This document shows positions 1-63,659 of a DNA stretch of 64,000 bases, piece by piece. Source of the stretch: Bacilli bacterium (lineage in GTDB: Bacteria > Bacillota_I > Bacilli_A > RFN20 > CAG-826); contig JAKSUZ010000006.1 in NCBI GenBank assembly GCA_024408505.1, positions 2,073 to 66,072 of the forward strand. The letters run 5' to 3'. Each line of letters starts with the position of its first letter. Within the stretch, counting starts at the first letter, position 1. Made by a program: the position numbers and the translations under genes. The notes beneath the pieces are model-generated. The model was not told the DNA's origin and did not search any database. It worked only from the letters and a program-made list of their open reading frames with translations.

Positions 1-3000
1 ATAAGCGATGCTTCCTCACGCTTCTTAATTAATAAAGAATTAACAGGCGAAATTACTAAAAAGATTGATTTGGGCTTTATGAAAAAAGCTTATGCAAACT
101 TAAAACGTGATTATCAAGATTTATTAAAATTAGCAAAAGAATTCTACGAAAGAGACTTTGTTGATAGCGGGAATATTATTGAATTAATTGATGACATAAA
201 TAATGATTATGGTGGTCTTGCAAGCGTTTATCTTGGTGATATTAAGGAAAAACTGATCGCATTAGCGAATCGTCTTTCAATTACACCAAATAATATATTA
301 ACAAGCGCTTTTGCTTATACTCTATCTCGATTTATCAATAATGATAAAGTCTATTTCACTTTTACAAATCATGGTCGTGATTTAGATGGTTTAGATGCCG
401 CGCTTGGTATGTATGTCAAAACTATTCCAATTGTTTTGAATACAAATAATAAATCAGTGGATGATTATCTAAAAGGATCTTCAAAGCACATTTTAGATGC
501 AATGAAGCATAGCGTTTTCCCATTCCGCTTAGTTGCAAGTGAATATCACCTTAAGAAAAATGTTTCGTTTGAATATAATACGAATCTAAATGATGTGACT
601 GGTGTCAGTGAATCGATTTATTATAAACCAGATAAAGAAAAGCACATTTCTCATGTATCGCATTTATTAGGCGTTATCAATGATTATCAAAATGGTTATG
701 TATTAAGCATCGAGCATTCTAGTAGATACACAAAAAATACCATAATTCGTTTCCTAAAAACATATCAAAAAATTATTATTGGCTTATTAAATAATAAAGA
801 ATTAAAGGACATCAACTACACTCTTGATGAAGATCTTAGTGTCTTTAATAAAATTAATGCGACTTCAACTAAACTTGTTTATCACGATATTTTAGAAGCC
901 TTTAATAATTCGCTTAAGAAATACCCAAATAACACATTAGTAACTTATCTTGATAATAAATATACCTATAAAGAAGGCGCGAAATGGATTAATAATCTTA
1001 CTAATAAACTAAATAACATTCCTCAAGGTAGTAATATAGCTATCTTAACTCATCGTTCTCACTATTATTTATTAACAGCCCTTGCGGTTCTTAATCATGG
1101 TTCTACTTATGTTCCAATTGATGATACTTATCCTGATGAACGAATTAAGTTTATGCTTAAAGATAGTGGGGCGAAATGTGTCTTAGTTACTAGCGAAATG
1201 GTTTCTCGCATTAAGACATTGACTGATATCCCGTTTGTTAATGTGAGTGATATTAGGGCAATTGGAGAACTTAAGCCTCTTAAGATAAACACTAACGAAG
1301 ATAGCGTGGCCATAATTTTATATACCTCTGGCACAACGGGAACACCTAAGGGTTCTTTAATTACTCGTAGAGCCATTCTTAATCTCGCTGAATGGTATGT
1401 TCATGATACGAAATTAACAAATCATGATATTTATTCAATGTATGTATCATATGTTTTTGATATGCATACTTTAGGATTCTATACGCCTTTAATTGTCGGC
1501 GCATCGTTAGATATTGTACCGTTCAATGTTCGCTTAAATCTTAATGATCTTAATAAACATTTTAATAAAGTTGGTGGCACTCATACATATATGACCGCTC
1601 AAGTAGGTAAATTATATGCGGAAGGCGGATATAAAACACCAATTAAACTTCTTTGTTTTGGCGGTATGAAGCTTGGCGAACTTCACGCGCCTAATTCAAT
1701 TGGAGCGTTTGAATCATATGGTCCAACTGAAAACTTAGCGATTACGACTTCAATCTTTGCAAATAAACGAATTCATCATTCATCTATTGGTAACTTCATT
1801 CATAACGTTAAAGGATATATCTTAGATCATGAACACCGTTTAGTGCCTTATGGCGCGATGGGTGAACTCTACCTATCCGGTTATCAACTCGCGAAAGGAT
1901 ATCTTAATCGAAAGAAAGAAAACGAAGCGGCTTTCTTTAAAAATCCATTTACTAACGAAAAAGGATACGAAGTCTTATATAAGACAGGTGATATTGTTAG
2001 ACTCTTACCTGATCATACCTTAGGGATTATTGGTCGCGTTGACTCTCAAGTCAAGATTCGGGGTAACCGCGTAGAATTAGGTGAAGTAGAAACATGTATT
2101 AAACAAGTTGATGGTGTTATCGATGTGACGGTTCAAACTATTCAAGTTAATGGTAATAATGAACTTGTTGCCTATGTTGCGACTAAAGACAAAGCCATTA
2201 AAGATAAAGTTATTAAATATGTCGCGAGCCATAAGCCCGCTTATATGGTTCCTAGCCACGTGATGGTTTTAGATAAGATTCCGCTTAACGTTAATGGCAA
2301 AGTTGATAAACGTGCGTTACCGAAAGTAGATGTCAGTAGTAAGAAAGTTAGCTATGTTGCTCCAACTAATGATGTTGAAAAGACTATTTGTGATGCCTTC
2401 GCGAAAGTCTTTAATTTAAAACAAGTTGGTGTGAATGATGATTTCCTTAGTCTAGGTGGTGATTCACTTACCGCAATTCGTCTATTAGCGTTCTTAAAAG
2501 ATTATCAATTAACCGCTGCGGATATTACTAACTTAAAAACTCCAAGACTCATTAGTGAGAAGATTTCGGGTAGTAAGTCATTAAGTCTTGATTTAAATAA
2601 ATATAGTCTCGTAACTGGTGCGCCTTTAAGTGAACAACAACTTAATATTTATCTTGATATTGTAATGAATAAGAAGGTAGATGCCTATCTTATTCCGCTG
2701 GTAACAAATTTAGAAAAATATTCATCTAATGATGTTATTAAAGCTTTAGATAAAATGTTTGAAATTCACCCTATTCTGAAAGGATATGTTGATAATAAAA
2801 ATGACACTCCTTTTATTAAAATAGGTAAAAAACCAAACACGAAAGTTGTCGACAATAACACAAAAATCGATTTAACTAAATTCTTATCGACACCATTTGA
2901 CATTTATCACGAATTATCTCGTTTCTTATATTGCAAAGAGAACAAAACTTTATATGCCGTGTTCCATCATATGATTTTTGATGGTCTATCAACCTTAGTG

Positions 3001-47198: not shown

Positions 47199-47200
47199 TT

Positions 47201-47872: not shown

Positions 47873-47890
47873 TATAAGGAGAGGTATTCT

Positions 47891-48490
47891 ATGAATAAGA
47901 CTAACAAAACTTTAAAAATTATCACCGCTTCAACAATTGCAATTGCGAGCCTTGTAATGGTTATTCTTGCAATTGTTAATTTAGCGAAAAATGGTAGTGG
48001 TGAATCGGAAACCATCGCTTTCCGCATCATCGCTTGTGTTCTTCTTGTTTTAGCTTCAATATTATCAACTTGTTTAGTTGTTGGTGATAATCCACGTCAC
48101 TTTGACGCTAGATTAGTTATTTATAATGGTCTATTACTTGGCACAGGTATTTTTGTAGTTTTACCAGTAGCCGGAGAAGTCGCCGATATTATGGTCGGTT
48201 ATTTAATCCCTTGTTTCCTTATCGGTCTTGGCGTTTTCTTTGTTGTCGCTACTATCATTAGCTTAATTAAGAAAATTAATAATAAAAACACGGATGTTGT
48301 TGCGCTAATTCTTGGTATCCTATTGCTTGTCGCAGGCATTCTTCTTCTTTGTTACGCAGAGAAAACAACCAAAGTTTTATGGTTAGTTATAGGCATTATC
48401 CTACTTGCATCTTCAATTATCGCTTTAGTGAACATAATTAAAAAAGATAAAGTAAAAACTATTGATGTTACTGATACTACAAAGAATTAA
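47891..48490 (+). CDS. Six-TM membrane protein, function unknown (HdeD/DUF308-like pattern)
   Basis: Six hydrophobic helices; AAGGAGAGG SD. Confidence 0.75.
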   Translation: MNKTNKTLKIITASTIAIASLVMVILAIVNLAKNGSGESETIAFRIIACVLLVLASILSTCLVVGDNPRHFDARLVIYNGLLLGTGIFVVLPVAGEVADIMVGYLIPCFLIGLGVFFVVATIISLIKKINNKNTDVVALILGILLLVAGILLLCYAEKTTKVLWLVIGIILLASSIIALVNIIKKDKVKTIDVTDTTKN

Positions 48491-49320
48491 TTATTCTTAC
48501 TAATATTTTCTAAAAACTTATCTTTTTCTTTATTGTTAGTGAAACTAATCACTAGAGTTTTATCTTTATTATCTACTTCGCATTTAAATTTCTTTAATAA
48601 GATTACCGAAGTATCTTGATTACCTTTTGCATGTTTCTTTTTCGCTAAACCTTCAATCTCACGAACTGATAAACCTTCTTCGTAGATTTTATTCACCAGT
48701 TCTTCAATTGAAGTTTCTGGTAATGATGCAATCGCTTTAGCGTGTCCATAACTTAACTTACCAACCGAGATATCATCAATAATCCATTTTGGTAAATTAA
48801 GTAATCTTAAGATATTAGTAATTTGTGAACGTGATTGATGAGCGAGCTCCGCTAAAGTAGTTTGATTGTAATTATATTTCTCGCTTAATTCTTTTAAGAC
48901 TAATGCAGTTTCGATAATATTCGCATCCCGTTGTTCGCGGTTATCCGCAAGTAGCATAAAAAGCATTTCTTCATCGCTTACATTAATGATTCTTGCGGGT
49001 GCTTTATAAATCTTATATTTCTTCATCGCTAATAAACGCTTACGACCAAAAACGATTTCGTAATAGTTTTTCTTAGGACGCACAATTAATGGATTAGTTA
49101 ATCCATTTTTATTAATACTATCCGCGATATTTTTTAAAGCATCATTAGGGATTACTGCACTTTTAATAATTGCATTGTCATCAATATTAGTCACTAACAA
49201 TTCGGTTGATTTAGCTTGACGGAGATTTTTCTCCATCTCTTCGATTACATAGCTCTTTGAAAAACGATTAACTAATTTAGAGAGTTGGTTTTTCTTTAGC
49301 AATCTATTTGTTTTGTTCAT
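48487..49320 (-). CDS. parB: ParB/Spo0J partition protein
   Basis: NGLTNPLIVR, GRKR, DNREQRDAN, HTH SRSQITNILRLL, LSYGHAKA, LSVRE. Confidence 0.92.
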   Translation of the reverse strand: MNKTNRLLKKNQLSKLVNRFSKSYVIEEMEKNLRQAKSTELLVTNIDDNAIIKSAVIPNDALKNIADSINKNGLTNPLIVRPKKNYYEIVFGRKRLLAMKKYKIYKAPARIINVSDEEMLFMLLADNREQRDANIIETALVLKELSEKYNYNQTTLAELAHQSRSQITNILRLLNLPKWIIDDISVGKLSYGHAKAIASLPETSIEELVNKIYEEGLSVREIEGLAKKKHAKGNQDTSVILLKKFKCEVDNKDKTLVISFTNNKEKDKFLENISKNN

Positions 49321-50077
49321 GATCTAATAATTCCTTCGCAAGTGATGCATACGAAACGCTACCAGCACTCGTAGGACGATATTCACTAACTGGCATTAAT
49401 TTAGCAGTAGCTTCAGGAATTGAAACGTTTCTGGGAATAACTGAGATAAATGTATTCTCTTTAAAGAGCGATCTTACTTCTTGAGCGATTTCGCTACTTA
49501 AATTCGTATGAGTATCAAACATAGTTAACACAAAACCTTCAATTGCTAAATTAGGATTGTGTAAACGTTTTACTTCACTAATGGTTCCGAGGATTTGTGC
49601 AATGGCCTCCATTGCAAAATATTCGCACTGAACAGGAATTAAAATACTGTTAGATGCCGTTAAGGCATTGATGGTTAATAAGCCTAAAGATGGAGGACAA
49701 TCAATTAAAACATAATCGTATTTCTTTTTAATTAGACTCATGGTTTCTTTAAGACGATTATGTGGTTGATTAGTGACATTCGAAATAGTGATACCAAAAT
49801 TCGCTAAGTTGAGATTACTTGGTATGATGTCGATTCCCTTATACGAAGTAGTTCTAATTACTTCATTGACATCTTTTTGATTAATTAAAGCTTCAAATAA
49901 AGTATTTTTAATTGCATTAATATCAATACCAACACCACGAGATGAATTGCCTTGTGGGTCCATATCAATAATCAAAACATGTTTATCTAAGTTACCTAAA
50001 GCAGCAGCTAAATTAATGGTGGTGGTAGTCTTACCTACGCCACCTTTTTGATTGGCAATTGAAATAATCTTACCCAT
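49304..50077 (-). CDS. parA: ParA/Soj ATPase
   Basis: NQKGGVGKTTT, DMDPQGN, DCPPSLG, PVQCEY. Confidence 0.96.
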   Translation of the reverse strand: MGKIISIANQKGGVGKTTTTINLAAALGNLDKHVLIIDMDPQGNSSRGVGIDINAIKNTLFEALINQKDVNEVIRTTSYKGIDIIPSNLNLANFGITISNVTNQPHNRLKETMSLIKKKYDYVLIDCPPSLGLLTINALTASNSILIPVQCEYFAMEAIAQILGTISEVKRLHNPNLAIEGFVLTMFDTHTNLSSEIAQEVRSLFKENTFISVIPRNVSIPEATAKLMPVSEYRPTSAGSVSYASLAKELLDHEQNK

Positions 50078-50116: not shown

Positions 50117-51550
50117 TTATATTTTCTTAATTAAAGGATATAGTTTTCGATACGTTAAATATTTCTTTTGATAGTAGTTAACTAATTTTGGATCTTTTTT
50201 AATTACTTTAGTAACTTTAACAATTTTATTAGTGGCTTGTTCAATTGATTTATATTCTTTGTTTGCAACCATCGCTAAAATAGCTGCACCTAAACCTGGC
50301 CCCTCATCCGCATTAATTAATTTAACATTTACGTTTAGGATATTCGCAATTAGGCTTGGCCAAACATCAGATTTTGCGCCACCGCCACAAACGGTAGTTT
50401 CTTTTACATTGATTCCCATATCGCGTGCGATATTGAGACAATCTTTTAATGCAAATGTCACTCCTTCAAGAACCGCTAATGACATATCGTTATTAGTGGT
50501 ATTACTTCTTAAATTAAAGAATGCACCCGTTGCGCTTGGATCATTATATGGGCATCTTTCGCCAGTTAAATAAGGTAAGAAATAAATATCATTTTTCTTT
50601 ATAGTAATCTTACGATTAACTTTTGCATTAATAATTTTACTCCACCAATTATAAGCACTAGCTGCACTAAGAATGCAACCCATTAAATAATATTTACTAT
50701 TTGCGTGATTAAATGAATGAATCGGTAAAGTCTTACCATCATGATAAGTATCAGAAGCGATTAAAATTGTTCCACTTGTACCAAGTGAAATGTTACAAGC
50801 GTTGTTCTTAATTGTGTTAGTGCCAATCGCAGCAATTGCATTATCTGCTCCGCCAGCAACAATCTTAACATCAGTATTTAAACCAAGATCATTCGCGACT
50901 TTCTTATTAATCTTTTTTACTACTTGATAACTTTCATAAATCTTTGGTAGTTGTTCTTTTTTAACACCAACAATTTTTAGCATTTCGTTTGACCACTTCT
51001 TTCTTTTAACATCAAGAAGTAGCGTTCCCGCGGCATCACTATAATCCGTGGCAAAGCATTTAGTGAATTGATAAATAAGATAATCTTTCGGGAGCATAAT
51101 CTTATTAATCTTTTTATAGTTTGCTGGTTCATGTTTTTTAACCCACATAATCTTTGGAGAAGTAAATCCATTAAAAGCGATATTGCCGGTTAAAGCATTT
51201 AACTTCTTTTTATTTTTATTTAATAACTGAGTGAATTCTTCACTCCGATTGTCGTTCCAAAGAATACAAGGTCTAATAACATTATCATCTTTATCAAGCA
51301 TTACTAGTCCATGCATTTGCCCACTAAAGGAAATGGCTTTAACATTCTTTTTATTTGTTTTGCTTAATAAAGTCTTTAATCCAGAAATAGTAGCGGACCA
51401 CCAACGATTAGGATCTTGTTCAGAAAAATTCACTTGTGGAATATTAACTGGATAGGCAACGCTAACAGAGTTAAGAACTTTACCTGTGTGGTTAACTAAA
51501 AGTAATTTAACTGCACTAGTGCCTAAATCAATTCCTATATATGTATTCAT
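50117..51550 (-). CDS. xylB: Xylulokinase
   Basis: GIDLGTS, SGQMHG, LWND, PYLTGERCP, GGGAKS; xylA nearby. Confidence 0.93.
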   Translation of the reverse strand: MNTYIGIDLGTSAVKLLLVNHTGKVLNSVSVAYPVNIPQVNFSEQDPNRWWSATISGLKTLLSKTNKKNVKAISFSGQMHGLVMLDKDDNVIRPCILWNDNRSEEFTQLLNKNKKKLNALTGNIAFNGFTSPKIMWVKKHEPANYKKINKIMLPKDYLIYQFTKCFATDYSDAAGTLLLDVKRKKWSNEMLKIVGVKKEQLPKIYESYQVVKKINKKVANDLGLNTDVKIVAGGADNAIAAIGTNTIKNNACNISLGTSGTILIASDTYHDGKTLPIHSFNHANSKYYLMGCILSAASAYNWWSKIINAKVNRKITIKKNDIYFLPYLTGERCPYNDPSATGAFFNLRSNTTNNDMSLAVLEGVTFALKDCLNIARDMGINVKETTVCGGGAKSDVWPSLIANILNVNVKLINADEGPGLGAAILAMVANKEYKSIEQATNKIVKVTKVIKKDPKLVNYYQKKYLTYRKLYPLIKKI

Positions 51551-51552
51551 GA

Positions 51553-53010
51553 TTAAATTAATGTGAGATATAAGTTCATACCAATTGCGGTAAGAATGGT
51601 TGCAATTGGGAATGCAGCGGCATATGCGTTCGCCACGTCGTCGGTTTTGGCCATGCCAATTAATGCGCCTAACGCTGGAGTAGAAGTCATACTACCAGTA
51701 ATAGCGCCTAAGTTATTTAATAAAGGTAATTTAAATATGTATTTACCCATAAAGTAACCGCCTATCATCGGAATCACAGTAATAATCACTCCGAGTAAAA
51801 TTGCATAAACAATAGTAACCGGATCAATTCCACCTGTAGAAGCGCTATTAATAATCTTATAGCCACCAACAATACCGATACCAGCTAAGAAGACAATTAA
51901 ACCAAATTCACGGAAGGTTTTATTAACATTCGCTGGAACTTTAAATGACATTTTGCCAATATGTCCGAAGTGACCAAAGATAATACAGCTAAGTAAACAA
52001 CCACCGGTGGTGCCTAGTGAGAAACATGGTCCTGCGAATCCATCTGGAGTTAATGGAATAGTTATTGCGCCAACTAATAAACCAGCAAAAGCGGCGATTG
52101 AGAATGGCACTAAACCAAACGAATCTACTTCAAAATAAGTTTTATCTAAACCCTGTCTCTGTTTTTCTTCTTCGGCTTTTTCTTCATTCATTTCTTGTTT
52201 TAAAGCTTTGACGATTAATAGACCTCTTTCCATGCTCATATCCGCTTTTAAGATCTTAGGCATTAATTGAATGAAAAGAACAACACCTAAAACGCCTAAA
52301 GGATAAGTAACTGCATATCCAATCGTTACTAAAGTAACTGCTTGGTCACCAGCAGCTTTTGCTACTTCTTGTGCCGCGGCTAAAGCAGGAGTAGAAGTAA
52401 TAGCGCCTGAGAAAATACCTGAAGCGTAGAATGGACCAATGCCAGGAATCAAACCAATTAAAGCGGTTAATAAAATGCCGACTAAAGTGACAGAAACTCC
52501 CATAGTAATAAATGATTTAGCGTTTGTTTTAAAACTTCTAAAGAAAGTAGGACCTGCAATAAATCCAACTGCGGAAGCAAATAAAATTAATCCGAAATTT
52601 TCAAGAACATCACCATAAATAGTGATATCATGAATCCCTTTTGTAGCATCTTCTACTAATACAAATTGGCCAATCCAAGGAGTATCAGGAGGTATAGCGG
52701 CAAAAGCGATGCCGACTCCGAGCGCGACTAAGAATACACCGGCTGAACCAAAAGAAACGCCTTTAATAGTAATGCGACCAATCGCAAGGCCGATAGCTAA
52801 AATTAAAAATAATCCAATAAATCTAGCTAAGTGTTGCCCGACGACAACTGGACCAACTTTTCCTTCTGGATCAGGTGGTGCAAAATTACACCAAACAACA
52901 ATTAGTGCTAATAAAACAACCCCAAAACAAATCCAAAAAACTTTATTTTTGAACAATGATTTAAAAAAGTTTGGTTTTTGGGAAGAAGAGCTTTTCTTTT
53001 TCTCAGCCAT
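51553..53010 (-). CDS. AspT/YidE/YbjL-family transporter lacking TrkA-C domains
   Basis: Duplicated G(A/S)xTSTPAL motifs, GYAVTYPLG; only a short charged linker between the halves. Confidence 0.85.
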   Translation of the reverse strand: MAEKKKSSSSQKPNFFKSLFKNKVFWICFGVVLLALIVVWCNFAPPDPEGKVGPVVVGQHLARFIGLFLILAIGLAIGRITIKGVSFGSAGVFLVALGVGIAFAAIPPDTPWIGQFVLVEDATKGIHDITIYGDVLENFGLILFASAVGFIAGPTFFRSFKTNAKSFITMGVSVTLVGILLTALIGLIPGIGPFYASGIFSGAITSTPALAAAQEVAKAAGDQAVTLVTIGYAVTYPLGVLGVVLFIQLMPKILKADMSMERGLLIVKALKQEMNEEKAEEEKQRQGLDKTYFEVDSFGLVPFSIAAFAGLLVGAITIPLTPDGFAGPCFSLGTTGGCLLSCIIFGHFGHIGKMSFKVPANVNKTFREFGLIVFLAGIGIVGGYKIINSASTGGIDPVTIVYAILLGVIITVIPMIGGYFMGKYIFKLPLLNNLGAITGSMTSTPALGALIGMAKTDDVANAYAAAFPIATILTAIGMNLYLTLI

Positions 53011-53084: not shown

Positions 53085-54404
53085 TTATTTACCATGAATG
53101 ATTTGATTTATAATGCTCTGCATGAGCTCTTGATGGTTGCTCTTAGGAAGCTTTGCATCCTTCATCTTACAAGCATATTTACTGAGTTCTTCTAGAGTAG
53201 TCTTACCACTAACAATCTTTTTACCAATGCCTGTATTAAATGAAGCATATTTCTCTTTGATCATCTTATCAATACGTCCGTCTTTAATTAACTTATCTGC
53301 ATTAATTAATCCTAAAGCATAGGTATCCATACCTAAGATATAACCATAGAACATATCTTCTTTGGTGTAAGAACCACGGCGGTTCTTTGCATCAAAGTTA
53401 AATCCACCGGTTAAACCTTTACTCTTAAGTACTTCATACATTGCCATCGTAGCGGTATGAACATCAAATGGGAATTCATCAGTATCCCATCCTAAGATTG
53501 GATCGCCTTGGTTCGCATCAATACTTCCTAACATATTATTTAAACGAGATACTCTTAATTCATGTTCAAAAGTATGACCCGCTAAAGTAGCGTGATTAGC
53601 CTCGATATTTAACTTAAAGTCTTTATCTAACCCATAATGACGTAAGAAATTAATGGCGGTATTAGCATCAAAGTCATATTGATGTTTCATTGGTTCTTTG
53701 GGTTTTGGTTCAATATAGAAATCGCCTTTAAAACCAATCTTACGACCATACTTAACGGCCATTTTCATGAGTCGAGCGATATTATCAAGCTCTAATTGCA
53801 TATCAGTATTTAATAAATGCTCATAGCCTTCTCTTCCGCCCCAAAAGACATATCCGCGACCACCGAGTTTAACGGTAATATCAAGCGCTTTCTTGACTTT
53901 TGCGGCTGCAAAGGCAAAGACATCCGCACTACTAGTGGAACCCGCTCCAGCGAAGAATTTGGGGTTAGAGAACATATTAGAAGTACCCCAAAGACACTTA
54001 ATACCGGTTTGTTTCATCTTTTTTAAGATATAATCGCTAATTTCATCTAAACGCTTATAGTTAACGTTAATATCATTGGTTTCAGGGATTAAATCCGCAT
54101 CATGCCAGCAGAAATAATGAATGCCAAGTTTTTGCATAAATTCAAAACCTGCATCAACTTTAGCCTTAGCGTGATCCATGGTGCCAATCTTTCTATTGAA
54201 AGATTTATCCATGGTATCAGTACCAAACATATCCGTTCCTTGAGCGCATAAATTGTGCCACCAAGCCATCGCAAAAGGGAGATGATCCTTCATTTTCTTA
54301 CCGGCTACTACCTTATTTTCATCATAATAATGAAAAGCTAAGGGATTTTTACTGCTCGGGCCTTCATATTTAATTTTTTTAATGTTAGGGAAGTATTCTT
54401 TCAT
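53085..54404 (-). CDS. xylA: Xylose isomerase (class II)
   Basis: [51 protein letters not shown]. Confidence 0.97.
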
Positions 54405-54502
54405 AAATTTACCTCATAGTAAGCATTATATAACTAATCTTAAATAAATAATTTATTATTTAGATATTTTTTAGTTTATAATATATTCAGTTTACATTAT
54501 TA

Positions 54503-56026
54503 GTGATTATGAAGAAAAACACTTTAAAAATCATAACCATTGTAAGCGCTTCCTTTATAGCGACATCTTGTTCTTTATTTCAAACCAAATATTTTGACTG
54601 GTTAAAATCTACAAATAATAACACTGAGATTAACTATTGTCTTTTAATTGGTCAAAATGAGCATAGTGACTCTATTGAAAGAACTAGGTACACGCGCGAA
54701 GCTTTACACACACGTGACGCTGCGTCTGAAATTAACGGAAATGCTAACTTAGGCACCCCTAAGATTGGTCAACTCACCTTAGGTGGCAAAAGTTCAACCG
54801 ATCCATTAAATCCAGCCCCAGAACGCGAATTTAAGGTAACTGAGCTTGAACATATGGAGCAAAAGTCCTTAGCAGGCGTTGTTTGGGACTCAATTACCGC
54901 AAACGGGACCACTTCAACCTGGATTAGTAAACATAATGAGAAAATCACCATGATTATTTCTAATAATGATGGCATGGCCGAAGGCGCCTTATTCGCCTCT
55001 AATTACATTAAAGATTTACCATTATTCGGTTATGATGCAAACACCTCAACCCTTAAATTAATCACTCAAGGCAAGATTATGGGCACAGTGGATCAAAATG
55101 CATCTGCTCAAACTTCAGCCGCCTATTTAATGATTAGAAATATCCTAGAGGATATTGATAATAAGGCTAATGGCATCGGAACAACGGCTTATAATCCCTT
55201 AAATCGTGGATTTAATGGGGAAGAAAGCGCAACAGCGGATGGCATTTATATTGAAGGCTTTAATAGCGATACCCAAATAACTGAATTAGAGAAAGAAGGA
55301 ATAACTAATCCATTCCATGATGATCGTTCGCCTAATAACATGGATTTAAGCAAAACTGACGGGTATCATCAAATTTTATCGAAAAGTATCGCGATTGACG
55401 ATACAAATATCGATACTTTCGTTGATGAAAGCGGTGAAGTTCGTAAACCACACGATTTAGCATGGTCAGATATCGGTTATGTTCATAAAAAGGGTAGTAA
55501 AAAACCTAATAAAACCTATAACATATGTCATGTTTATAACAACGCTGCTGAAGTCTATTTACAAGGAACAATGCATGACTATTATGTTGAATATGATGAT
55601 GAATTAGGTTTAGCCATCCAAAAGATTGATGGCGATGGGGTTGATGAACAAAAGATTTTCTCCCAATTAGAAGGCGCTTGCGCAGGTACTCAATTTGATG
55701 CTTTCTTAATTAACATGGTTACTACCACTGATGGTGGAACATTTGTAGATAACATTTCTAAATATGCTGCATCCAAAGAAGGAAAGGGTAATCCACCTAA
55801 AGGTGGATGGGATAAATGGGAAGACCGTTTAGACACTCCATTAATCTTCTGGAATAAACAGCCACAAACGGTTGATGGTAAAGTCGATGTAGATACCATG
55901 AATAATAAATACTTTAAGTATACTTATTTTGTAGGAGTCGATGCTTCTTATGGCGGACAAGAACAAGGAAATATGATTGTTCGTTATCTCGAACGCCAAT
56001 ACGAGAATAGCATTAAAAATAAATAA
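54503..56026 (+). CDS. Sugar ABC substrate-binding lipoprotein (MglB/GGBP-like, circularly permuted), paralog 1
   Basis: Lipobox IATSC; HSDSIERT, WD, SNNDGMA, FGYDA precede AFLINMV, PLIFWNKQP, YFVGVDASYGGQEQG. Start may be ATG 54509. Confidence 0.88.
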   Translation: MIMKKNTLKIITIVSASFIATSCSLFQTKYFDWLKSTNNNTEINYCLLIGQNEHSDSIERTRYTREALHTRDAASEINGNANLGTPKIGQLTLGGKSSTDPLNPAPEREFKVTELEHMEQKSLAGVVWDSITANGTTSTWISKHNEKITMIISNNDGMAEGALFASNYIKDLPLFGYDANTSTLKLITQGKIMGTVDQNASAQTSAAYLMIRNILEDIDNKANGIGTTAYNPLNRGFNGEESATADGIYIEGFNSDTQITELEKEGITNPFHDDRSPNNMDLSKTDGYHQILSKSIAIDDTNIDTFVDESGEVRKPHDLAWSDIGYVHKKGSKKPNKTYNICHVYNNAAEVYLQGTMHDYYVEYDDELGLAIQKIDGDGVDEQKIFSQLEGACAGTQFDAFLINMVTTTDGGTFVDNISKYAASKEGKGNPPKGGWDKWEDRLDTPLIFWNKQPQTVDGKVDVDTMNNKYFKYTYFVGVDASYGGQEQGNMIVRYLERQYENSIKNK

Positions 56027-56028
56027 TT

Positions 56029-57582
56029 ATGAATAAACGTCCGTTATTACTTCTATCATCATTATCAATAATTGCATTAACTTCGTGTGGATTATTAAAT
56101 AAACATACTTGGAGTTGGACTGCTTCTACTGAAGGTTACAAAATAAACTATTGTTTATTAATTGGCCAAATTGATCATAACGATTCTATGAATCGTACCC
56201 GTGGTGTGCGGGATCAGCTTGATACTAGAGTAGAAGAAAAATATCGGAAAGATAATTACAACCTTGAAGGAGTTAAACAAGGTGAAGTTACTTTAGGCAA
56301 AGGCACCGCTCATGAACATAAATTTGTGACTACCGAACTTGAAAGCTTAGAACAGAAATCATTTTCCGGCGCTACTTGGGATCCGATTACCGCTAATACA
56401 ACTACTGGTACTTGGATTGGTAAACATGGTAAGAATATTACTTGTTTTGTCTCCAATAACGATGGTATGGCGGAAGGCGCTATTCGAGCCTTTAACTGGT
56501 ATCAAGGTATGCCAATCTTTGGCTATGATGCCAATATGTCGACTTTAAAACTAATTAACCAGGATAAGATTATGGGTACGATTGATTCCAATACCGCTGG
56601 TCAATGCTTAGTGACTTCAGTTATTGTTCGTAATATCCACAATGCTTCAAAGAAGAGAGCGGAATATAATGGCATGAGTCTTATTGAAAAGATGTGGAAA
56701 GAAGAAGGTAAACCTTATAACCCAATTTATGAAGGTTTCCAATATGATGATGAAGAATATGCTGCTGAAGCAGGCACCGAAGTACGTGGACATAATGAAA
56801 TTTCTTATGGTACTGGCTATGTTCATAGCACAGTTACTTTTGATGGATGCCTTAACGATGATTTAACTAATAATCCTAAATCTAACCATGCTATTCTTTT
56901 GAAGAATAGAACGGTAACTAAAGATAAATATACCGAAGGCATTGATCCAAGTGCGATTAAAACTAATTTCTTCTTTAATCCAGATACTGGCGAAGCATTA
57001 ACGCCAAAAGAAATATATGATAACGCTGAAGGCGCTAATGTTGAAGATAAAAATCCAGTTATCCCTAATAAACAAGATGAACCAGTGCGTGCTTGGCAAT
57101 CTTGGTATAGTGATACGGATACTTTCTTCTCTGGAAATATGGATCCTTACTTTGTAATTACACAAGATTCAAATATGTTTAATATAGCAGTAACACCAGC
57201 CAAAAGTGATGGGGCAAATGAAGATAAAAACCTTAATGCTTTAAGCGCAGTCTTAACTAAAAGTGAAAGTGAGAGGCCAAACGCTTTCTTAATTAATCCA
57301 GTTCAACAACCTAATTCAGTTCAATACATTACTAGAATTGCCGACGGACTTAAATTACAAGAAGAAGATGAATGGATTAATCGAAGTGATATTCCGATTA
57401 TTTTCTGGAATCGTCAACCAACTGATCTACATGGCGCGATATCAACTGAATCCGTTATGAATAATAAATACTTTAAATACACTTATTATATTGGCTTTGA
57501 TGCGGCTCAAGGCGGCGAACTACAAGGTCAAATGGTTAAGTCGTGGTTAAACAAAAAGTATATGGAGCAATTTGAAAATTAG
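56029..57582 (+). CDS. Sugar ABC substrate-binding lipoprotein (MglB/GGBP-like, circularly permuted), paralog 2
   Basis: Lipobox LTSC; HNDSMNRT, GATWD, SNNDGMA, FGYDA precede AFLINPV, PIIFWNRQP, YYIGFDAAQGGELQG. Confidence 0.88.
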   Translation: MNKRPLLLLSSLSIIALTSCGLLNKHTWSWTASTEGYKINYCLLIGQIDHNDSMNRTRGVRDQLDTRVEEKYRKDNYNLEGVKQGEVTLGKGTAHEHKFVTTELESLEQKSFSGATWDPITANTTTGTWIGKHGKNITCFVSNNDGMAEGAIRAFNWYQGMPIFGYDANMSTLKLINQDKIMGTIDSNTAGQCLVTSVIVRNIHNASKKRAEYNGMSLIEKMWKEEGKPYNPIYEGFQYDDEEYAAEAGTEVRGHNEISYGTGYVHSTVTFDGCLNDDLTNNPKSNHAILLKNRTVTKDKYTEGIDPSAIKTNFFFNPDTGEALTPKEIYDNAEGANVEDKNPVIPNKQDEPVRAWQSWYSDTDTFFSGNMDPYFVITQDSNMFNIAVTPAKSDGANEDKNLNALSAVLTKSESERPNAFLINPVQQPNSVQYITRIADGLKLQEEDEWINRSDIPIIFWNRQPTDLHGAISTESVMNNKYFKYTYYIGFDAAQGGELQGQMVKSWLNKKYMEQFEN

Positions 57583-57593
57583 CGGAGGAGCAG

Positions 57594-59108
57594 ATGATGA
57601 AAAAGAAAGTTAGCAACAGCAAATACGTTCTCGAAATTATTAACTTATCAAAAGCCTTTGGTAAGAACCAAGTTCTTTGTGGCGTTAATATTAGAGTCCC
57701 GCGTGGTACGGTTATGGGTCTGATGGGTGAAAATGGTGCGGGCAAATCAACCTTAATGAAATGTTTATTTGGTATGTACGCGAAAGATACCGGAACCTTC
57801 CGTTTAGATGGTAAAGAAATTGATTTTAAATCGAGTAAAGAAGCGTTAGAAAGTGGTGTAGCGATGGTGCACCAAGAATTAAACCAATGTTTAAATAGAA
57901 CGATTCAAGATAACTTATTCTTAGGGCGTTATCTTACGAATGCAGGCATTGTTAATGAAAAGGCTATGTATAAGCGTTCACTTGAATTATTCTCACGCTT
58001 AGACATGAAATTTAATCCTAAGATGATGATTCGTGATTTATCAGTTTCGCAAAGACAGATGGTCGAAATTGCCCGTGCGATTTCTTATAACTCAAAAGTA
58101 ATCATCTTAGATGAACCAACTTCATCGTTATCTGAAAGAGAAACTAGAAAACTATTTGAAATTATTAATAATTTAAAGAAAACAGGTGTAAGCTTCGTCT
58201 TCATTTCTCATAAGATGAACGAAATCTTTGAACTATGTGATAACATCACGGTCCTTCGTGATGGTTTAGTTACGCTAGATAAACCAATCCCAAAGACTAA
58301 CTTAGATGAAGTAGTTAAGGCGATGATCGGAAGAAGCTTAACTAGTCGCTTCCCACCTCTAACTAATAAACCAGGCGAAGTAATCTTAAAAGTTAGAGCG
58401 CTTGAAACTAAATATAAACCATACTTACGTGATATTGACTTTGATTTAAAGAAAGGTGAAATCTTAGGCGTATATGGTCTAGTAGGCGCGGGTAGAAGTG
58501 AATTACTTGAATGCTTATTCGGTTGCCGTACCATAGGTACTGGTGCGATTCGTTATCACGATAAACGAGTATTATTTACTACTCCAAAAGAAGCAATGGA
58601 TCATAACTTTGCATTCGTGACTGAAGAAAGAAAGGTATCAGGCATGTTCGCTAATTGTAACTTAACCTTTAATACTTGTATTACTAACCTAGATAAATAT
58701 AAATCTAGAACTATGTTAATTAATAGCAAGATGAATAAAGCAGCCGATTTACAAATTGGTCAAATGCACGTTAAGTGCAGTAGCCGTAATGATATGATTC
58801 TTAACTTATCGGGTGGTAATCAACAAAAAGTTATTATTGGTAAGTGGCTTGAAAGAGCACCGGATGTATTCTTAATGGATGAACCAACCCGTGGTATTGA
58901 TATTATGGCTAAGTACCAAATCTATGAATTAATGATTGAACTCGCGAAGCGTGGTAAATCAATCATTATGGTAAGTAGTGAAATGCCAGAAATCTTAGGA
59001 GTTACTAATCGAGTAATAGTGATGAGTAACTACCGGATTGCGGGTGAACTAGAAACTAAGAAAGCAACGCAAGAGCAAATTATGCGTCTATGCACAAAAT
59101 ATTTATAA
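57594..59108 (+). CDS. mglA: Sugar ABC transporter ATP-binding protein (tandem domains)
   Basis: GENGAGKSTLMK, MVHQELN, LDEPTSSL, LSGGNQQKV, DEPTRGID. Confidence 0.9.
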   Translation: MMKKKVSNSKYVLEIINLSKAFGKNQVLCGVNIRVPRGTVMGLMGENGAGKSTLMKCLFGMYAKDTGTFRLDGKEIDFKSSKEALESGVAMVHQELNQCLNRTIQDNLFLGRYLTNAGIVNEKAMYKRSLELFSRLDMKFNPKMMIRDLSVSQRQMVEIARAISYNSKVIILDEPTSSLSERETRKLFEIINNLKKTGVSFVFISHKMNEIFELCDNITVLRDGLVTLDKPIPKTNLDEVVKAMIGRSLTSRFPPLTNKPGEVILKVRALETKYKPYLRDIDFDLKKGEILGVYGLVGAGRSELLECLFGCRTIGTGAIRYHDKRVLFTTPKEAMDHNFAFVTEERKVSGMFANCNLTFNTCITNLDKYKSRTMLINSKMNKAADLQIGQMHVKCSSRNDMILNLSGGNQQKVIIGKWLERAPDVFLMDEPTRGIDIMAKYQIYELMIELAKRGKSIIMVSSEMPEILGVTNRVIVMSNYRIAGELETKKATQEQIMRLCTKYL

Positions 59109-59125
59109 TATAAAGGAGATATATT

Positions 59126-61093
59126 ATGGCGAAAAAGAAAGTTATTAAAAAGAAGACGGTTAAGGCTAAAGTTAAGACTTCATCTTCTATGACGATCGCA
59201 ACGGATGAATCAAACACCATTGAAGTCTATGTCAAGAAACACGCGCGTTTCGTGAGCGGTATTCTTGAGGCGCGCAAAAAAGACATTAGTCATGTTTTTG
59301 CGCTTCGGCGTGCAATCATCGATGTTGAGACTGATGAAAAATTAAAACCTGAAACTAAAGAAACAAAGCTTAGTGAACTAAAAGCTCAGCTTAAACAAGC
59401 TAAGATAGATGCTAAGCTTAGTCAAAAGGCCATCGAGAAAACCGTTGATGATGCCATTAAGAATAATTTCTATGATTTAAGAGTTTGTTTCTCTTATCAA
59501 CAAGTTAAGTATCAAGATTATCTTGATGAACTTAATAAATTAAGACGTGATGGTGAAAATAAGATCATCGCGCTTCGTAATGAAATCCAAGATATCATCT
59601 TGAATAAACAAATTGAAAAACACGAGAAGAGAGAATTAATTGATAACAATATTAAAGAATTAAAGAAAGCAAGAGAGAACGCTAAGTTAATGAAGAAAGA
59701 GGTTAAAGCCGTTCTTCATGAAGCCATGGTGTTATCTAAACTTGACTCTAAACAATATATGCGTCTTGTGAAGGCGGGTAATAAATATGACAATAATTTA
59801 TCACGTACGCAATATAAGGACATGTGCAAAACTATTAATGAAATGCACACGAAGCGTGTTATTCAATTAAAGAGTGAAGCTAAAGATAAGAAAGCGTTAG
59901 CTGTTGACTTAAAAGCTGAAAATATTGCTTACTCCAGTAAACTTAACGAAGCGAAGACCGCTAAAGTTGAAGCGATTGATCGTTCTAAAGAATTACGCTA
60001 TTCATCCTTTATGAATAAATACGCGTATACCGGTAAGCTCAAGCATGATCATCACCCAATTGGTGAGTGGTTCCGCTTTAAATATGAAAACTACATTGCT
60101 AACTTTAATCTCCAGAATTGGTTATTAAAGAATGCATTATATGTAGTTATCCTTGTAGTTTTCGCTGCCTTAGTCGGTATGACTGGTGGTGGTCTACTTA
60201 AAGGTGAGTCACTTTTAGGTGCTTTAGTCCAGATTTCGCCAAAGATCTTCTTCGCGTTAGGCGTCGCGGGTCTAATTCTATTAGGAGGCACGGACTTAAG
60301 TATTGGACGACTAACCGGTGTAGGTGTTTCCTTTACCTTAATGATATTATCTAACGATATTTATCCTGATATTAATGGTAACGCGTGGTGGATATTTACG
60401 ACCGCGCCAGGCGCAGTAAAAATTATTACAGCCTTATTAATTTCAATCCTCTTATGTACTTTCTTTACTACTTTCGCTGGTTTCTTTACCGCGAAGTTTA
60501 AGATGCATCCATTCATTTCAACCTTAGCGGTGCAGCTTATTTCTTATGGTTTCTTCCAAATCTTCTGGTCAGCAACCTCGAGCTTCTCACCTGATACCGA
60601 TCTACTCGCTGCGTTACGTGGCCCGCAATCTATATTATTAGTTATATACGCGATTATCGCGATATTAATTGTTTGGTTTATTTGGAACAAAACGAAGTTT
60701 GGTAAACACATGTACGCGGTGGGTGGTAACCAAGAAGCCGCAACCGTTTCTGGTATTTCTCCATTTAAGATTACAATGCTCGCGTTCGTAATGGCGGGTA
60801 TTCTCTATGGTTTTGGTGGATTTGTCCAAGCGATTCAAACTGGTACTGGTAACTTTAACTCAGGTTATGGTACTGAAACTGACGCGATTGCCGCGTGCGT
60901 TATAGGTGGTATCTCATTTAGTGGTGGTGTTGGTAAAGTCGGCGGTGCAGTTATAGGCGCGATTATATTAGGGTTCTTAACGTATGCGTTCGCTTATATA
61001 GGTGTTAACTCCAACTTACAGCTCCTCATCAAGGGTGTCATTATTCTCATCGCAGTGGCTCTTGACTGTGTGAAATATTTACGTAAAAAATAA
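59126..61093 (+). CDS. mglC: Sugar ABC permease with long N-terminal coiled-coil extension
   Basis: GTDLSIGR, HPFISTL, FGKHMYAVGGNQEAA, DAIAACVIGGISF; ~330-aa charged N-terminus. Confidence 0.88.
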   Translation: MAKKKVIKKKTVKAKVKTSSSMTIATDESNTIEVYVKKHARFVSGILEARKKDISHVFALRRAIIDVETDEKLKPETKETKLSELKAQLKQAKIDAKLSQKAIEKTVDDAIKNNFYDLRVCFSYQQVKYQDYLDELNKLRRDGENKIIALRNEIQDIILNKQIEKHEKRELIDNNIKELKKARENAKLMKKEVKAVLHEAMVLSKLDSKQYMRLVKAGNKYDNNLSRTQYKDMCKTINEMHTKRVIQLKSEAKDKKALAVDLKAENIAYSSKLNEAKTAKVEAIDRSKELRYSSFMNKYAYTGKLKHDHHPIGEWFRFKYENYIANFNLQNWLLKNALYVVILVVFAALVGMTGGGLLKGESLLGALVQISPKIFFALGVAGLILLGGTDLSIGRLTGVGVSFTLMILSNDIYPDINGNAWWIFTTAPGAVKIITALLISILLCTFFTTFAGFFTAKFKMHPFISTLAVQLISYGFFQIFWSATSSFSPDTDLLAALRGPQSILLVIYAIIAILIVWFIWNKTKFGKHMYAVGGNQEAATVSGISPFKITMLAFVMAGILYGFGGFVQAIQTGTGNFNSGYGTETDAIAACVIGGISFSGGVGKVGGAVIGAIILGFLTYAFAYIGVNSNLQLLIKGVIILIAVALDCVKYLRKK

Positions 61094-61186: not shown

Positions 61187-61224
61187 ATAGGCACAGTTAT
61201 TCTAAAAAAGGAGATTTGTTAGAT

Positions 61225-62391
61225 ATGACTAAAAACATAAAATTTATTGCGCCATTAGCCTTAGTTGCTTTTGGTACACTTGCAAGTTGCGGTGGTGGAA
61301 AGAGTTTTTCCCATTTAAACCGCGTTGAGTACAAGGAAGTTAATTCGAAGGAATTGGTGCCACAACTCAATAAGATTTTTGAGAAACAGTATGCTGCTGG
61401 TGTTATTGCTAATTTATTCAAGAAAGGAACGATTAACCTAAATTATTCTATATCTTTAAACGGTGATGTCCGTGCATATATTGATGGTGTTGCACCTATT
61501 GATGTCAATGGCATTAACATTTCAGAGCAAAATAGTGTTACTTTCTCTTGGTCAATTGATGATGAGTATTTGAAAGCTACTAGTAAGACTGGTACTACTT
61601 ACATTATTCATGATAAAGCTGACAATAAATATTACAAATGTTTTGATATCGGTGATGGTCAAAAATATAAAGTGGATCTTTTTGAAGGATATAGTGATCC
61701 TTCTGACATCCCTTATTTCTCTGACATTGTAATTGCTGAAGCTGCAAAAAATTGTGGTTTATATTATGGTGGTATGGGAATGGGAGTTGCTTTTGGGCTA
61801 ACTGGTCAAGGAACAATGTGGGTCGAACCACAAACTTATGATTTCATTAATTTCTATGAAATACCTGGTGCTCTTGTTCTTGCTGATCAAAAGCTTCCAG
61901 AAACTCTTGGAGGCATCGCTATTATCATTGATGGAATCGATGAATTAGATGTTGGAACTGGTAAAGTTGGTAGTGATGGTGACGATAGCGTTTCCCTTAA
62001 TGTTGCTTTAACAAATCTTAATTTAGCAAAAATTCAAGATTATCTCGATAAATTAAAATTACCATTTGATCTTCCTGAAGGCTTAACTCTTGCTGGTAAT
62101 GCGACGCTTGATTATTTCTTTGCATTTGCCGAAAACTTCATCAAACAACAGGAATTGATTTTTGACTTAGACAAAGTTAGTTTTGTTTATGAATCGCTTC
62201 CAGAAGAAGATGATGATGACTACACTTATGTAAGCGCTGATTTCTCAGCAAATGCCTACATCGGAGAAGAAGTAATAAAAGATAAGTGTACAGTTGATAC
62301 AGTTAATACTAAAGACTATACGACCGTAAAACTCACTCCCGGTGGCAAAGATTATGAGCCAACCTTTATTGTGGAAGACTTTGTTTGTTAA
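61225..62391 (+). CDS. Hypothetical lipoprotein, paralog 1
   Basis: KNIKFIAPLALVAFGTLAS-CGG; ATG 61225 preferred to TTG 61216; shares KGTI, ITFSW-like, EAA(K/R)N and NFIKQQE with the next gene. Confidence 0.85.
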   Translation: MTKNIKFIAPLALVAFGTLASCGGGKSFSHLNRVEYKEVNSKELVPQLNKIFEKQYAAGVIANLFKKGTINLNYSISLNGDVRAYIDGVAPIDVNGINISEQNSVTFSWSIDDEYLKATSKTGTTYIIHDKADNKYYKCFDIGDGQKYKVDLFEGYSDPSDIPYFSDIVIAEAAKNCGLYYGGMGMGVAFGLTGQGTMWVEPQTYDFINFYEIPGALVLADQKLPETLGGIAIIIDGIDELDVGTGKVGSDGDDSVSLNVALTNLNLAKIQDYLDKLKLPFDLPEGLTLAGNATLDYFFAFAENFIKQQELIFDLDKVSFVYESLPEEDDDDYTYVSADFSANAYIGEEVIKDKCTVDTVNTKDYTTVKLTPGGKDYEPTFIVEDFVC

Positions 62392-62420: not shown

Positions 62421-63659
62421 ATGAAAAACATTAAACTTATTGCTCCATTAGCCTTAGTTGCTTGTGCAACACTTGCAAGTTGCGGTGGTAGTACCAATCC
62501 GTTTACTCCACTCAAACGTCTTGATTATAAAGAGGTTTCAGCTACTGAATTGACAGAAGTGCTACATAGACACATTAGACCAAGTCAAGTTACTGTAGAT
62601 GCTGAGGGTCGCATTTTCCATACGAAGCCATCTGAGAAAGGTACTATCACTTTCAATTATGGAGTAGCAGCTACTGGTAAATTTAAACTTTTTGCACCTT
62701 CAATTGTTCCAACTATTGATTTAACTGGTTTAAAAGGCGGTCTTGCTGATACAATCACTTTTTCTTGGGAAAAAGATAAGATAAAAATTAGTGATTCTAG
62801 ATCAACTAGTTATGTCATGAAAACTAGTGATCACTACATTAAGTATTATGATGTTGATGGGAAGAAATATTGTGTCAATATCGACCCATTAATTTATGGC
62901 GAAGATACTTCTGAAAAAAATGAAACAACTATTATTAATTATTTCGACAATTATCTTATGGTTGAAGCCGCTAGAAATTTGGGTGTCTATATACCTCGTG
63001 TAACAGAAATAAAAGATGATGATACTGGTGAACATATTGCTTGGAATTATATGTTAGAAGGAGCTGGTTTTGATTTAACTGGTTTTGGAAATTATCTTAC
63101 TTGGGACTATAATGAAAATCCTAGAATAGGTGAGCCTGGTTTGAGATTATATACCCTTGAGAATGTTATTGCCCCTGGTCAATATTTATCTACAGGAAAA
63201 ATTGCTAGACTTCTACCAATCATTAAAGCGATTAGCGGCGGTTATTACAAGTTCGGCAGTAATGATGAAAAATCAGCATCTATTAATCTTGGTATTAAGA
63301 ATTTCGATTTATCAATTCTTCCTGGAATAATTGAGTCACTAGTCGGCTCTCGATATAGTGCGGATATCGATGCTTCTGGAACATTATCTGCCGATTACTT
63401 TGTCGCTTATGCGAATAACTTCATTAAGCAACAAGAAATCATTATTAATGCTAATGCAGCGAAATTAAGTGGTGAAGTATATCTAGATAAAGATAAAACG
63501 CAAACCCCAGTTCTCCTTGGAACTGCCGATGTCGCTCTTGATTTATCACTATACCTTGGTCAAGAAGTTACTGATGAAGCTAGTATCGAAGATATTAATA
63601 AAGAAGAATACGGTGATCCAATAATTATTGATCCTGTTGATCCAGCATTAATTCGATAG
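62421..63659 (+). CDS. Hypothetical lipoprotein, paralog 2
   Basis: MKNIKLIAPLALVACATLAS-CGG; AAGGAG SD; motifs shared with the previous gene. Confidence 0.85.
   Translation: MKNIKLIAPLALVACATLASCGGSTNPFTPLKRLDYKEVSATELTEVLHRHIRPSQVTVDAEGRIFHTKPSEKGTITFNYGVAATGKFKLFAPSIVPTIDLTGLKGGLADTITFSWEKDKIKISDSRSTSYVMKTSDHYIKYYDVDGKKYCVNIDPLIYGEDTSEKNETTIINYFDNYLMVEAARNLGVYIPRVTEIKDDDTGEHIAWNYMLEGAGFDLTGFGNYLTWDYNENPRIGEPGLRLYTLENVIAPGQYLSTGKIARLLPIIKAISGGYYKFGSNDEKSASINLGIKNFDLSILPGIIESLVGSRYSADIDASGTLSADYFVAYANNFIKQQEIIINANAAKLSGEVYLDKDKTQTPVLLGTADVALDLSLYLGQEVTDEASIEDINKEEYGDPIIIDPVDPALIR

Follow-up and report, generated by a model that had tools for sequence, protein, structure and literature searches.

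The 64,000-bp stretch analysed here (the window; positions 2,073 to 66,072 of contig JAKSUZ010000006.1, assembly GCA_024408505.1, Bacilli bacterium) contains two adjacent genes for MglB-like sugar-binding lipoproteins, SBP1 and SBP2, in which the chain of the glucose/galactose-binding protein (GGBP, MglB) is circularly permuted in an order distinct from both known ones. In E. coli MglB, block A was defined as N-lobe strands 1-3 (YDDNF ... AINLV), block B as PVVFFNKEP, YYVGTD and the GIIQG helix, and block C as the HPDAEAR strand through GTVLND to the chain end. The order of these blocks is A-B-C in E. coli MglB, B-C-A in TpMglB-2 of Treponema pallidum, and C-A-B in both SBP1 and SBP2. This third cut point is genuine and has been conserved among relatives. 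SBP1 and SBP2 are very likely the anchored receptors of an Mgl-type monosaccharide ATP-binding cassette (ABC) importer, with the type I (cluster B) MglB/GGBP fold permuted to C-A-B.

The motifs H.DS, SNNDGMA, GYDA, FWNKQP and GVDA were located at positions 52, 151, 174, 447 and 476 of SBP1 (505-residue numbering), and the same five motifs in the same order at 50, 142, 164, 459 and 488 of SBP2; the two proteins are 36% identical and collinear along their entire length. Both open reading frames (ORFs) and the motif positions confirm the motif order given in a preliminary description of this DNA, which had also placed the start of the chain just after the GG..QG helix, a cut point distinct from those of E. 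coli MglB and TpMglB-2. The first residues of SBP1 and SBP2 correspond to about mature E. coli MglB residue 137 and the last ones to about 127-134, and the new termini coincide with the EF-like Ca2+ loop site of MglB and TpMglB-2. The order is novel because block B sits at the C-terminus. Block C of SBP1 holds the C-lobe core with H52, D54, R58, W126, N153 and D176, followed by the hinge strand GTVDQN (Q196), and its linker connects the former C- and N-termini by the extra lobe crossing and contains loop insertions that are not found in relatives of ca. 410 amino acids (aa).

The top sequence match in the PDB (phmmer) was TpMglB-2 (5jx2), with E-values of 1e-40 (SBP1) and 1.3e-34 (SBP2); the matching pieces were not collinear. 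In 507-residue numbering, SBP1 residues 443-499 corresponded to Tp chain residues 20-75, 38-225 to 82-254, and 344-418 to 314-385; the same out-of-order pattern was obtained for SBP2. The 344-418 piece was weak alone (i-Evalue 1.1) and is covered by a profile search, in which profile positions 37-389 aligned with Tp chain 84-386 (E 1.4e-84). A window-order profile built from 70 C-A-B proteins aligned with E. coli MglB in swapped pieces (positions 314-457 with precursor residues 31-150, and 35-74 plus 109-232 with 159-325), and collinear hhalign against E. coli MglB aligned block C alone. When the sequences of Tp-order proteins were doubled, profile positions 36-464 aligned in one piece to four out of four, for example P0077 with 345 bits versus 279.5 + 58.6 bits for the two pieces of its single sequence. 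The two reference orders given in the preliminary description also held: the swapped pieces agree with an E. coli MglB in which the YDDNF/AINLV half comes first, and the phmmer pieces with a TpMglB-2 that starts at PLVFFNRQP and ends at FAVNMV. Because the chain is permuted, the Pfam family PF13407 (Peripla_BP_4) was matched only partially, over profile positions 157-255 and 119-242, with scores of 51.8 and 63.1 bits (cut-off 35.1), and PF18610 gave 34.5 bits on block A of SBP1 (cut-off 36.8), with no match reported for SBP2.

Structure prediction, proposed as a check in the preliminary description, resulted in confident AlphaFold2 models, with a predicted local distance difference test (pLDDT) value of 92.5 and a predicted template modelling (pTM) score of 0.89 for SBP1, and 93.1 and 0.90 for SBP2; the ESM Atlas model of homologue P0047 had a pTM of 0.84. 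By VIA-align, residues 30-418 of the SBP1 model superposed on chain residues 66-377 of glucose-bound TpMglB-2 (6bgc; Z 28.5, root-mean-square deviation 2.2 Å, 311 residues), which comprises block C, linker and block A only, and residues 29-438 of the SBP2 model on 69-377 (Z 28.7, 1.7 Å, 305 residues). Block B, modelled at pLDDT 93-98 (as was the C-terminal helix, residues 479-504 of SBP1), had no sequential partner in the 6bgc alignment, which on the predicted models is the signature of the permutation. By Foldseek, canonical GGBPs were aligned to the model over 166-188 columns only. A collinear match over the full length to TpMglB-2 or another solved protein, named in the preliminary description as the finding that would speak against it, was sought, and none was found in the fold search of 48,161 representative chains, with which the profile search of PDB sequences agrees. 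Canonical periplasmic binding protein and LacI chains gave Z values of 13-15 to the models, in support of two hinged alpha/beta lobes; as same-order homology these alignments (7-14% identity) were rejected due to their lobe-swapped register.

According to the models, the chain would begin on the C lobe at the H..D...R strand, traverse the C-lobe core, cross to the N lobe and come back via the linker common to TpMglB-2, after which N-lobe strands 1-5 would be built in canonical E. coli connectivity and the chain would end with the first C-lobe helix. Such a path would bring both termini to that part of the C lobe which carries the Ca2+ loop in MglB.

The most similar known system is TpMglB-2 (Tp0684; 5jx2, 6bgc, 6bgd), which was the best match to the SBPs by both sequence and fold. 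The SBPs resemble it in being lipoproteins, in a predicted fourth lobe crossing with its linker, in the mglA-mglC operon, and in keeping equivalents of its contact set N311, F313, N19, H89, D91, R95, W145, N172, D195 and Q215. They differ in chain order and in the position of the termini (both on the N lobe in TpMglB-2, both on the C lobe in the SBP models), in carrying the block B of ca. 60 residues at the opposite chain end, and in having ca. 95 extra loop residues; in addition, the Ca2+-loop motif has mostly been lost from the window-order proteins. E. coli and Salmonella MglB (GGBP; 2gbp, 2fvy, 1gca) have the same type I bilobed fold and importer type, and their D14, F16, N91, H152, D154, R158, W183, N211, D236 and N256 are either identical in the SBPs or substituted conservatively; the SBPs also have the strand 3 - helix - strand 4 connection of E. 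coli MglB. In contrast to the SBPs, E. coli MglB is a soluble, Ca2+-binding periplasmic protein with A-B-C order and three lobe crossings, and serves also as a chemoreceptor. Canonical lipoproteins from the bacterial order to which the window belongs (P0139, P0154, and that at 5625-6791 of locus L143) share the lipobox, the HADAEAR/SNNDGMA/GIDA/FWNRE motifs and the mglA-mglC operon with the SBPs, and differ by their A-B-C order, with the linker segment of the permuted forms present as a C-terminal extension.

The preliminary description's claim of a new topology stood, as no solved structure or paper with C-A-B order was found. Brautigam et al. (2016; PMC4990184), in the sections used here, describe the Tp order only and propose the class ‘Type Ic / Cluster Bc’, of which the SBPs show the homology and the lipoprotein character, and not the B-C-A order with collinear cover of >90%. 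The C-A-B order had no description in the full-text literature searches, which covered the CIRPIN survey (PMC13552848) except for its supplements, possibly listing permuted pairs. The parts of PMC8694067 and PMC13552848 that were considered contain no other natural MglB permutant, and in the literature searched TpMglB-2 alone represents natural permutants of the GGBP fold.

A survey of the motif order, likewise suggested in the preliminary description, covered 89 homologue clusters at 90% identity; the window order occurred in 76 (three of them fragments) and the Tp order in the other 13. At the level of species-representative loci (n = 57), 42 carried intact window-order genes, one a split gene and one a gene cut by the contig end, and 13 had the Tp order. 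As it is repeated in so many clusters and loci, the window order is not a product of chance. A single gene was present in 37 of the 42 intact loci and two genes in five. The carriers were titled mostly ‘Bacilli bacterium’ or ‘uncultured Mollicutes’, and most hosts were gut Bacilli that have not been cultured and have genomes of 1.1-1.8 Mb. Five loci were titled Gemmiger formicilis (L009), Bacteroidaceae (L012), Acutalibacteraceae (L016), Lachnospiraceae (L017) and Escherichia coli (L031); these labels are probably wrong, since the genomes are of 1.1-1.8 Mb and carry a window-order gene. Window-order clusters accounted for 18 among the best 150 of 1,584 representatives (50% identity). A sample of 151 genomes from the window's order contained 32 with a member of the family and nine with a full-length window-order match, and two separate family genes were present only in the window's own genome. 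The Tp order is far commoner, with 4,894 clusters at E 1e-40 when a Tp-lineage query was used. In NCBI-derived records these proteins are named merely ‘substrate-binding domain-containing protein’, and in the T3 and T4 clusters described below, JGI labels some members as methyl-galactoside or ABC-type sugar transport substrate-binding proteins.

In many loci a canonical collinear MglB-like gene of ca. 340 aa (NF011924, 175-180 bits) was located directly upstream of the permuted gene, in 22 out of 42 window-order loci and five out of 13 Tp-order loci (e.g. L009:4829-5845, L139:3416-4444, L051:4636-5637). Many related operons accordingly consist of one canonical and one permuted receptor, whereas in the window both receptors are permuted.

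Table 2 of PMC4990184 lists ten positions at which E. coli MglB and TpMglB-2 contact the sugar, and these were mapped through the alignments. They read E, Y, N, H, D, R, W, N, D, Q in SBP1 and D, F, N, H, D, R, W, N, D, S in SBP2. Equivalents of D154, R158, W183, N211 and D236 were retained in all 70 window-order proteins and those of H152 and N91 in 69, and substitutions at the three variable contacts were conservative: D14 was D in 52, E in 17 and N in one, F16 was F in 50 and Y in 20, and N256 was Q in 46, S in 23 and A in one. As trios these contacts are E-Y/F-Q in SBP1 orthologues, D-F/Y-S in SBP2 orthologues, and D-F-Q in the single-copy forms of ca. 410 aa. In every one of the 56 loci examined the binding-protein gene is followed by mglA- and mglC-like genes, except in L003 and L025 at contig ends.

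With such a site, the sugar would sit in the cleft, held by the conserved MglB residue set, and closure followed by docking on MglC/MglA would drive uptake, a pair of lipid-anchored Venus-flytrap receptors thus feeding one Mgl-type importer. SBP1 and SBP2, paralogues that differ at three contacts (E/Y/Q versus D/F/S), probably take different sugars. One of them may bind glucose or galactose and the other perhaps xylose, the latter suggested by gene neighbourhood only, since xylose genes adjoin the operon.

The preliminary description spoke of a third cut point, which is right in that the order differs from both known ones and falls short as a count, for five chain orders were seen in the family: A-B-C, B-C-A, C-A-B, and two more, designated T3 and T4, each with its own lipobox and upstream of mglA and mglC. 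T3 begins just before the TWD motif, continues with the linker, A and B, and has the Ca2+ loop and the H..D...R strand at its C-terminus; its C-terminal half is collinear with Salmonella GGBP residues 10-160 (E 3e-18). P0127, P0140 and P0102 had been candidates for the window order and were assigned to T3 upon motif inspection. T4 starts at GTVSQN, followed by linker, A, B and the C-lobe core, and ends with ..GYDAN..IQQG. T4 is rare: among the best 120 matches only its own cluster was collinear, the other 119 being non-collinear with the T4 query at ca. 50% cover, and a metagenome scan with a T4 protein returned, at 79 loci, only Tp-order (81) and canonical (6) ORFs. A Tp-order protein, P0137 (513 aa), was observed to have an additional N-terminal region including part of A.

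The second-best fold match among the 48,161 chains was 5er3, a sugar-binding protein of Rhodopirellula baltica SH1 (entry released in 2015), which was not named in the literature searched. Model residues 82-497 of SBP1 aligned with its chain residues 47-328 (Z 18.8, 276 residues), and weak sequence matches (E 0.047 and 0.0023) covered NND..GxDA at 66-132 and linker-A-B at 132-307. It differs from the SBPs by its low identity (14%) and by an alignment that begins after their first strand and helix. As these elements are omitted, 5er3 appears to be a C-lobe-first, T3-like circular permutant and not of window order.

For the history of the orders, 81 sequences were rotated to a common order by author-chosen cut points, and a tree was inferred with IQ-TREE and rooted by outgroup. 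The canonical proteins, together with four T3 rows, were separate from the permuted lineage (support 98/97). This lineage was divided into a clade in which the Tp order prevailed (97/99) and a second one, the main window-order clade (99/97), containing 35 C-A-B rows and one Tp-order protein, P0093, whose B-C junction W..(x)..G.L.Y is the junction found after the lipobox in the window order. Within this clade the SBP1 and SBP2 clades were sisters (98/94). The suggestion that the tandem pair is a clue to how the permutation was made found no support: C-A-B is the order of either gene, the two fall into sister clades within the main C-A-B clade, and most window-order loci have a single gene, so that on the tree the pair is a later duplication that arose after the permutation, and not a relic of it.

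On the same rotated-sequence tree the chain orders are polyphyletic. Four changes were needed for the window order, three for T3 and two for T4, and the starred branches force at least two for the window order, which formed one group in none of 200 bootstrap trees. An approximately unbiased (AU) test on an earlier quick tree rejected a single window-order clade (p 0.0006), with order labels settled after motif inspection. T3 had two placements in the canonical lineage and a third beside a Tp-order protein. Gene conversion between paralogues may be a source of this pattern, because P0234 (244 aa, lipobox-B-C core with a Tp-like start) and the T4 protein P0100 are 94% identical and end at the same residue.

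As a mechanism, a Tp-order ancestor would have been duplicated in tandem, fused in frame and trimmed to give the window order. Duplication and trimming is plausible because tandem Tp-order pairs (two of the 79 metagenome loci), a fused protein and linker-bearing canonical relatives (e.g. P0154, with the segment as C-terminal extension) exist. The fused protein, P0134 (671 aa, three cluster members), has the order A-B-C-A-B-C and is the expected intermediate, since the duplication-and-trimming model predicts a fused canonical duplicate; no fused forms were found among longer homologues (885-2525 aa), which is weak evidence. By a tentative reading, permutation could have a hot spot in the MglB-like lipoproteins that spirochaetes and gut Bacilli with small genomes possess, with at least five orders in the slot before mglA/mglC, several of them arisen repeatedly. 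On this reading, repeated tandem duplication, fusion and trimming would probably be behind the recurrent orders, and selection may act on where the protein carries its lipid anchor.

That the SBPs are ordinary, collinear proteins of the TpMglB-2 type (Type Ic / Cluster Bc), with an order already described, is scarcely credible. TpMglB-2 is their top PDB match by sequence and fold, and they appear to share its linker and PF18610 segment; however, the idea is already refuted by the phmmer, doubled-sequence and structural alignments, which are non-collinear, in one piece on doubled sequences only, and lacking model residues 419-505 and the Tp residues before 66, respectively. The survey in PMC4990184, as far as its text was available, itself demanded >90% cover and matching N-termini. 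Equally remote is an artefact, i.e. a chimeric assembly, miscalled ORFs across a tandem array, or decaying relic genes. The window comes from a metagenome bin of 53 contigs, tandem paralogues can mislead assemblers, and contigs from four other runs match the stretch piecewise only, one record spanning the SBP1/SBP2 junction (55949-56450) and one covering the upstream region into SBP1 (54300-54923). Against this, each ORF has its own lipoprotein signal directly 5′ of block C, the order recurs both in clusters of several origins and, alongside the same operon, in species loci, the contact residues are nearly invariant and the fold models confident. It is also improbable, if less so, that proteins of the right fold act as sensors or adhesins on a wall-less cell instead of as transport receptors. 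Surface lipoproteins of small-genome Bacilli are often multifunctional, and some binding proteins double as adhesins, CD0873 being among the fold matches by title only; yet the slot directly before mglA and mglC is conserved wherever the contig extends, the full sugar-contact set is kept, and one family gene per genome in the order-level sample, bar the window's, fits one receptor per transporter.

An origin of the window order directly from a canonical A-B-C gene, or by recombination of differently permuted paralogues, in place of a Tp-order ancestor, is unlikely and still the most serious of the alternatives. It would account for the A-to-B connection, which is that of E. coli (strand 3, helix, strand 4), for the canonical gene directly upstream in about half of the window-order loci, for the linker extension of the P0154 type, and for the fused A-B-C-A-B-C protein. 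The window- and Tp-order proteins nevertheless form one lineage apart from the canonical ones and have the linker in common, the Tp-order P0093 lies inside the main window-order clade, and the upstream canonical genes are only remotely related, with 12-48 bits to the window-order profile.

Several points weigh against the preferred reading of C-A-B permuted importer receptors derived from a Tp-order ancestor. The direction from Tp order to window order depends on the outgroup rooting of the rotated tree, and P0093 could be a reversal to the Tp order. That block B completes the N-lobe sheet is predicted from model and homology. One MglB feature has been lost, as the Ca2+-loop motif D.x.DG.L is gone from most window-order proteins, being present in five out of 70 and in neither SBP1 nor SBP2. 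The NCBIfam scores for MglB (NF011924; 79.8 and 65.3 bits, cut-off 420), MglA and MglC are all below the equivalog cut-offs, which makes the assignment of a substrate tentative, and no RNA runs were listed as containing the stretch.

Natural circular permutants of binding proteins are rare, and the window order is a second permutant of this fold. It is conserved, seems to be functional, and has its termini on the lobe opposite to that of TpMglB-2; C-lobe termini weaken the idea of one required anchor point. The family is a chance to study permutation via tandem genes and the tolerance of a hinge-bending protein to new termini. For annotation, length and coverage filters and collinear profiles (Pfam, NCBIfam) leave permuted proteins under-annotated. 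GGBP is a standard scaffold for glucose sensors, and the natural cut sites are possibly of practical use: should the hot-spot reading be true, they are a ready map of tolerated termini for glucose-sensor engineering. The interest is mainly in protein evolution and engineering.

Coordinates of the sugar-binding protein genes, their blocks and neighbouring genes in the window, and of T3 and T4 genes in other loci
Feature	Position	Strand	Remarks
SBP1, MglB-like sugar-binding lipoprotein, C-A-B order	54509..56026	+	505 aa from ATG; 507 aa from GTG at 54503
SBP1 signal peptide and lipobox (..IATSC, Cys21)	54509..54571	+	pLDDT <50 at residues 1-4 and 13-20
SBP1 block C, residues 37-243	54617..55237	+	equals Tp chain 82-254, E. 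coli precursor 159-325
SBP1 linker, residues 244-327	55238..55489	+	part of the model region (30..418) superposed on 6bgc
SBP1 block A, residues 328-437 (N-lobe strands 1-3, E348 and Y350)	55490..55819	+	equals Tp chain 314-385
SBP1 block B, residues 440-501 (PLIFWNKQP with N449, YFVGVDA, final 26-residue helix)	55826..56011	+	equals Tp chain 20-75
SBP2, lipoprotein, C-A-B order	56029..57582	+	517 aa; lipobox ..LTSC, Cys20
SBP2 blocks (approximate)	C 56131-56763, linker 56764-57057, A 57058-57375, B 57382-57570	+	
MglA-like ABC ATPase, two cassettes	57594..59108	+	504 aa; NF008215 645 bits, cut-off 828
MglC-like permease	59126..61093	+	655 aa; residues 327-655 equal MglC positions 7-336; 237 bits, cut-off 386
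Xylose isomerase-like gene	53085..54404	-	divergent from operon; name from reading of translation
AspT/YidE-type permease	51553-53010	-	behind xylose isomerase-like gene
Xylulokinase-like gene	50117-51550	-	behind xylose isomerase-like gene; name from reading of translation
T3 gene of locus L140	L140:5751-6905	-	further T3 members: P0127 (11 contigs), P0140, P0102, P0246 (413 aa, 524-kb contig)
T4 gene of locus L139	L139:4628-5836	+	canonical MglB-like gene upstream, mglA and mglC downstream; further T4 members: P0100, P0232/P0233, P0104

The mglA- and mglC-like genes follow the tandem pair with intergenic gaps of 11 and 17 bases. The N-terminal ca. 325 residues of the MglC-like permease (59126-60100) are lysine-rich, helical by eye, and without a Pfam or NCBIfam match; long MglC forms (frames of ca. 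480-700 aa, E. coli MglC being 336 aa) were found in all related loci regardless of binding-protein order. The combination of a tandem pair with xylose genes was, among the loci examined, restricted to the window and L001, L002, L005 and L006. A promoter scan gave 30 candidates against a shuffle mean of 36.9, i.e. no better than shuffles, and no Rfam elements were found near the binding-protein genes. Downstream of the operon, the ORFs at 61216-62391 (391 aa) and 62421-63659 (412 aa), both on the + strand, had no Pfam or NCBIfam match, and the former has a lipoprotein-like N-terminus (..LASCGGG).

The source genome, from a gut bacterium, is a metagenome-assembled bin of 1.23 Mb, estimated 87% complete, and the window has a G+C content of ca. 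33%. The genome also encodes a galactokinase-like protein, a ROK kinase and two phosphotransferase system (PTS) EIIC genes, and a third PF13407 protein (contig 23) was considered and found to be unrelated to the SBP1/SBP2 family. A galactose-1-epimerase-like gene (score below cut-off) is located at 33617-34732 (-) of the window. The genes mnmG, parB and parA (45333-50077) are situated just upstream of the sugar locus, and this region may therefore be near the replication origin. At the other end of the window (1-9318, +), a non-ribosomal peptide synthetase gene is open at its 5′ end and encodes >3,100 aa (3,795-aa frame in the contig), with three adenylation and three condensation stretches and one thioesterase. 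The genome contains eight condensation-domain matches on four contigs, and any such match was present in only five of 41 sampled genomes of the family.

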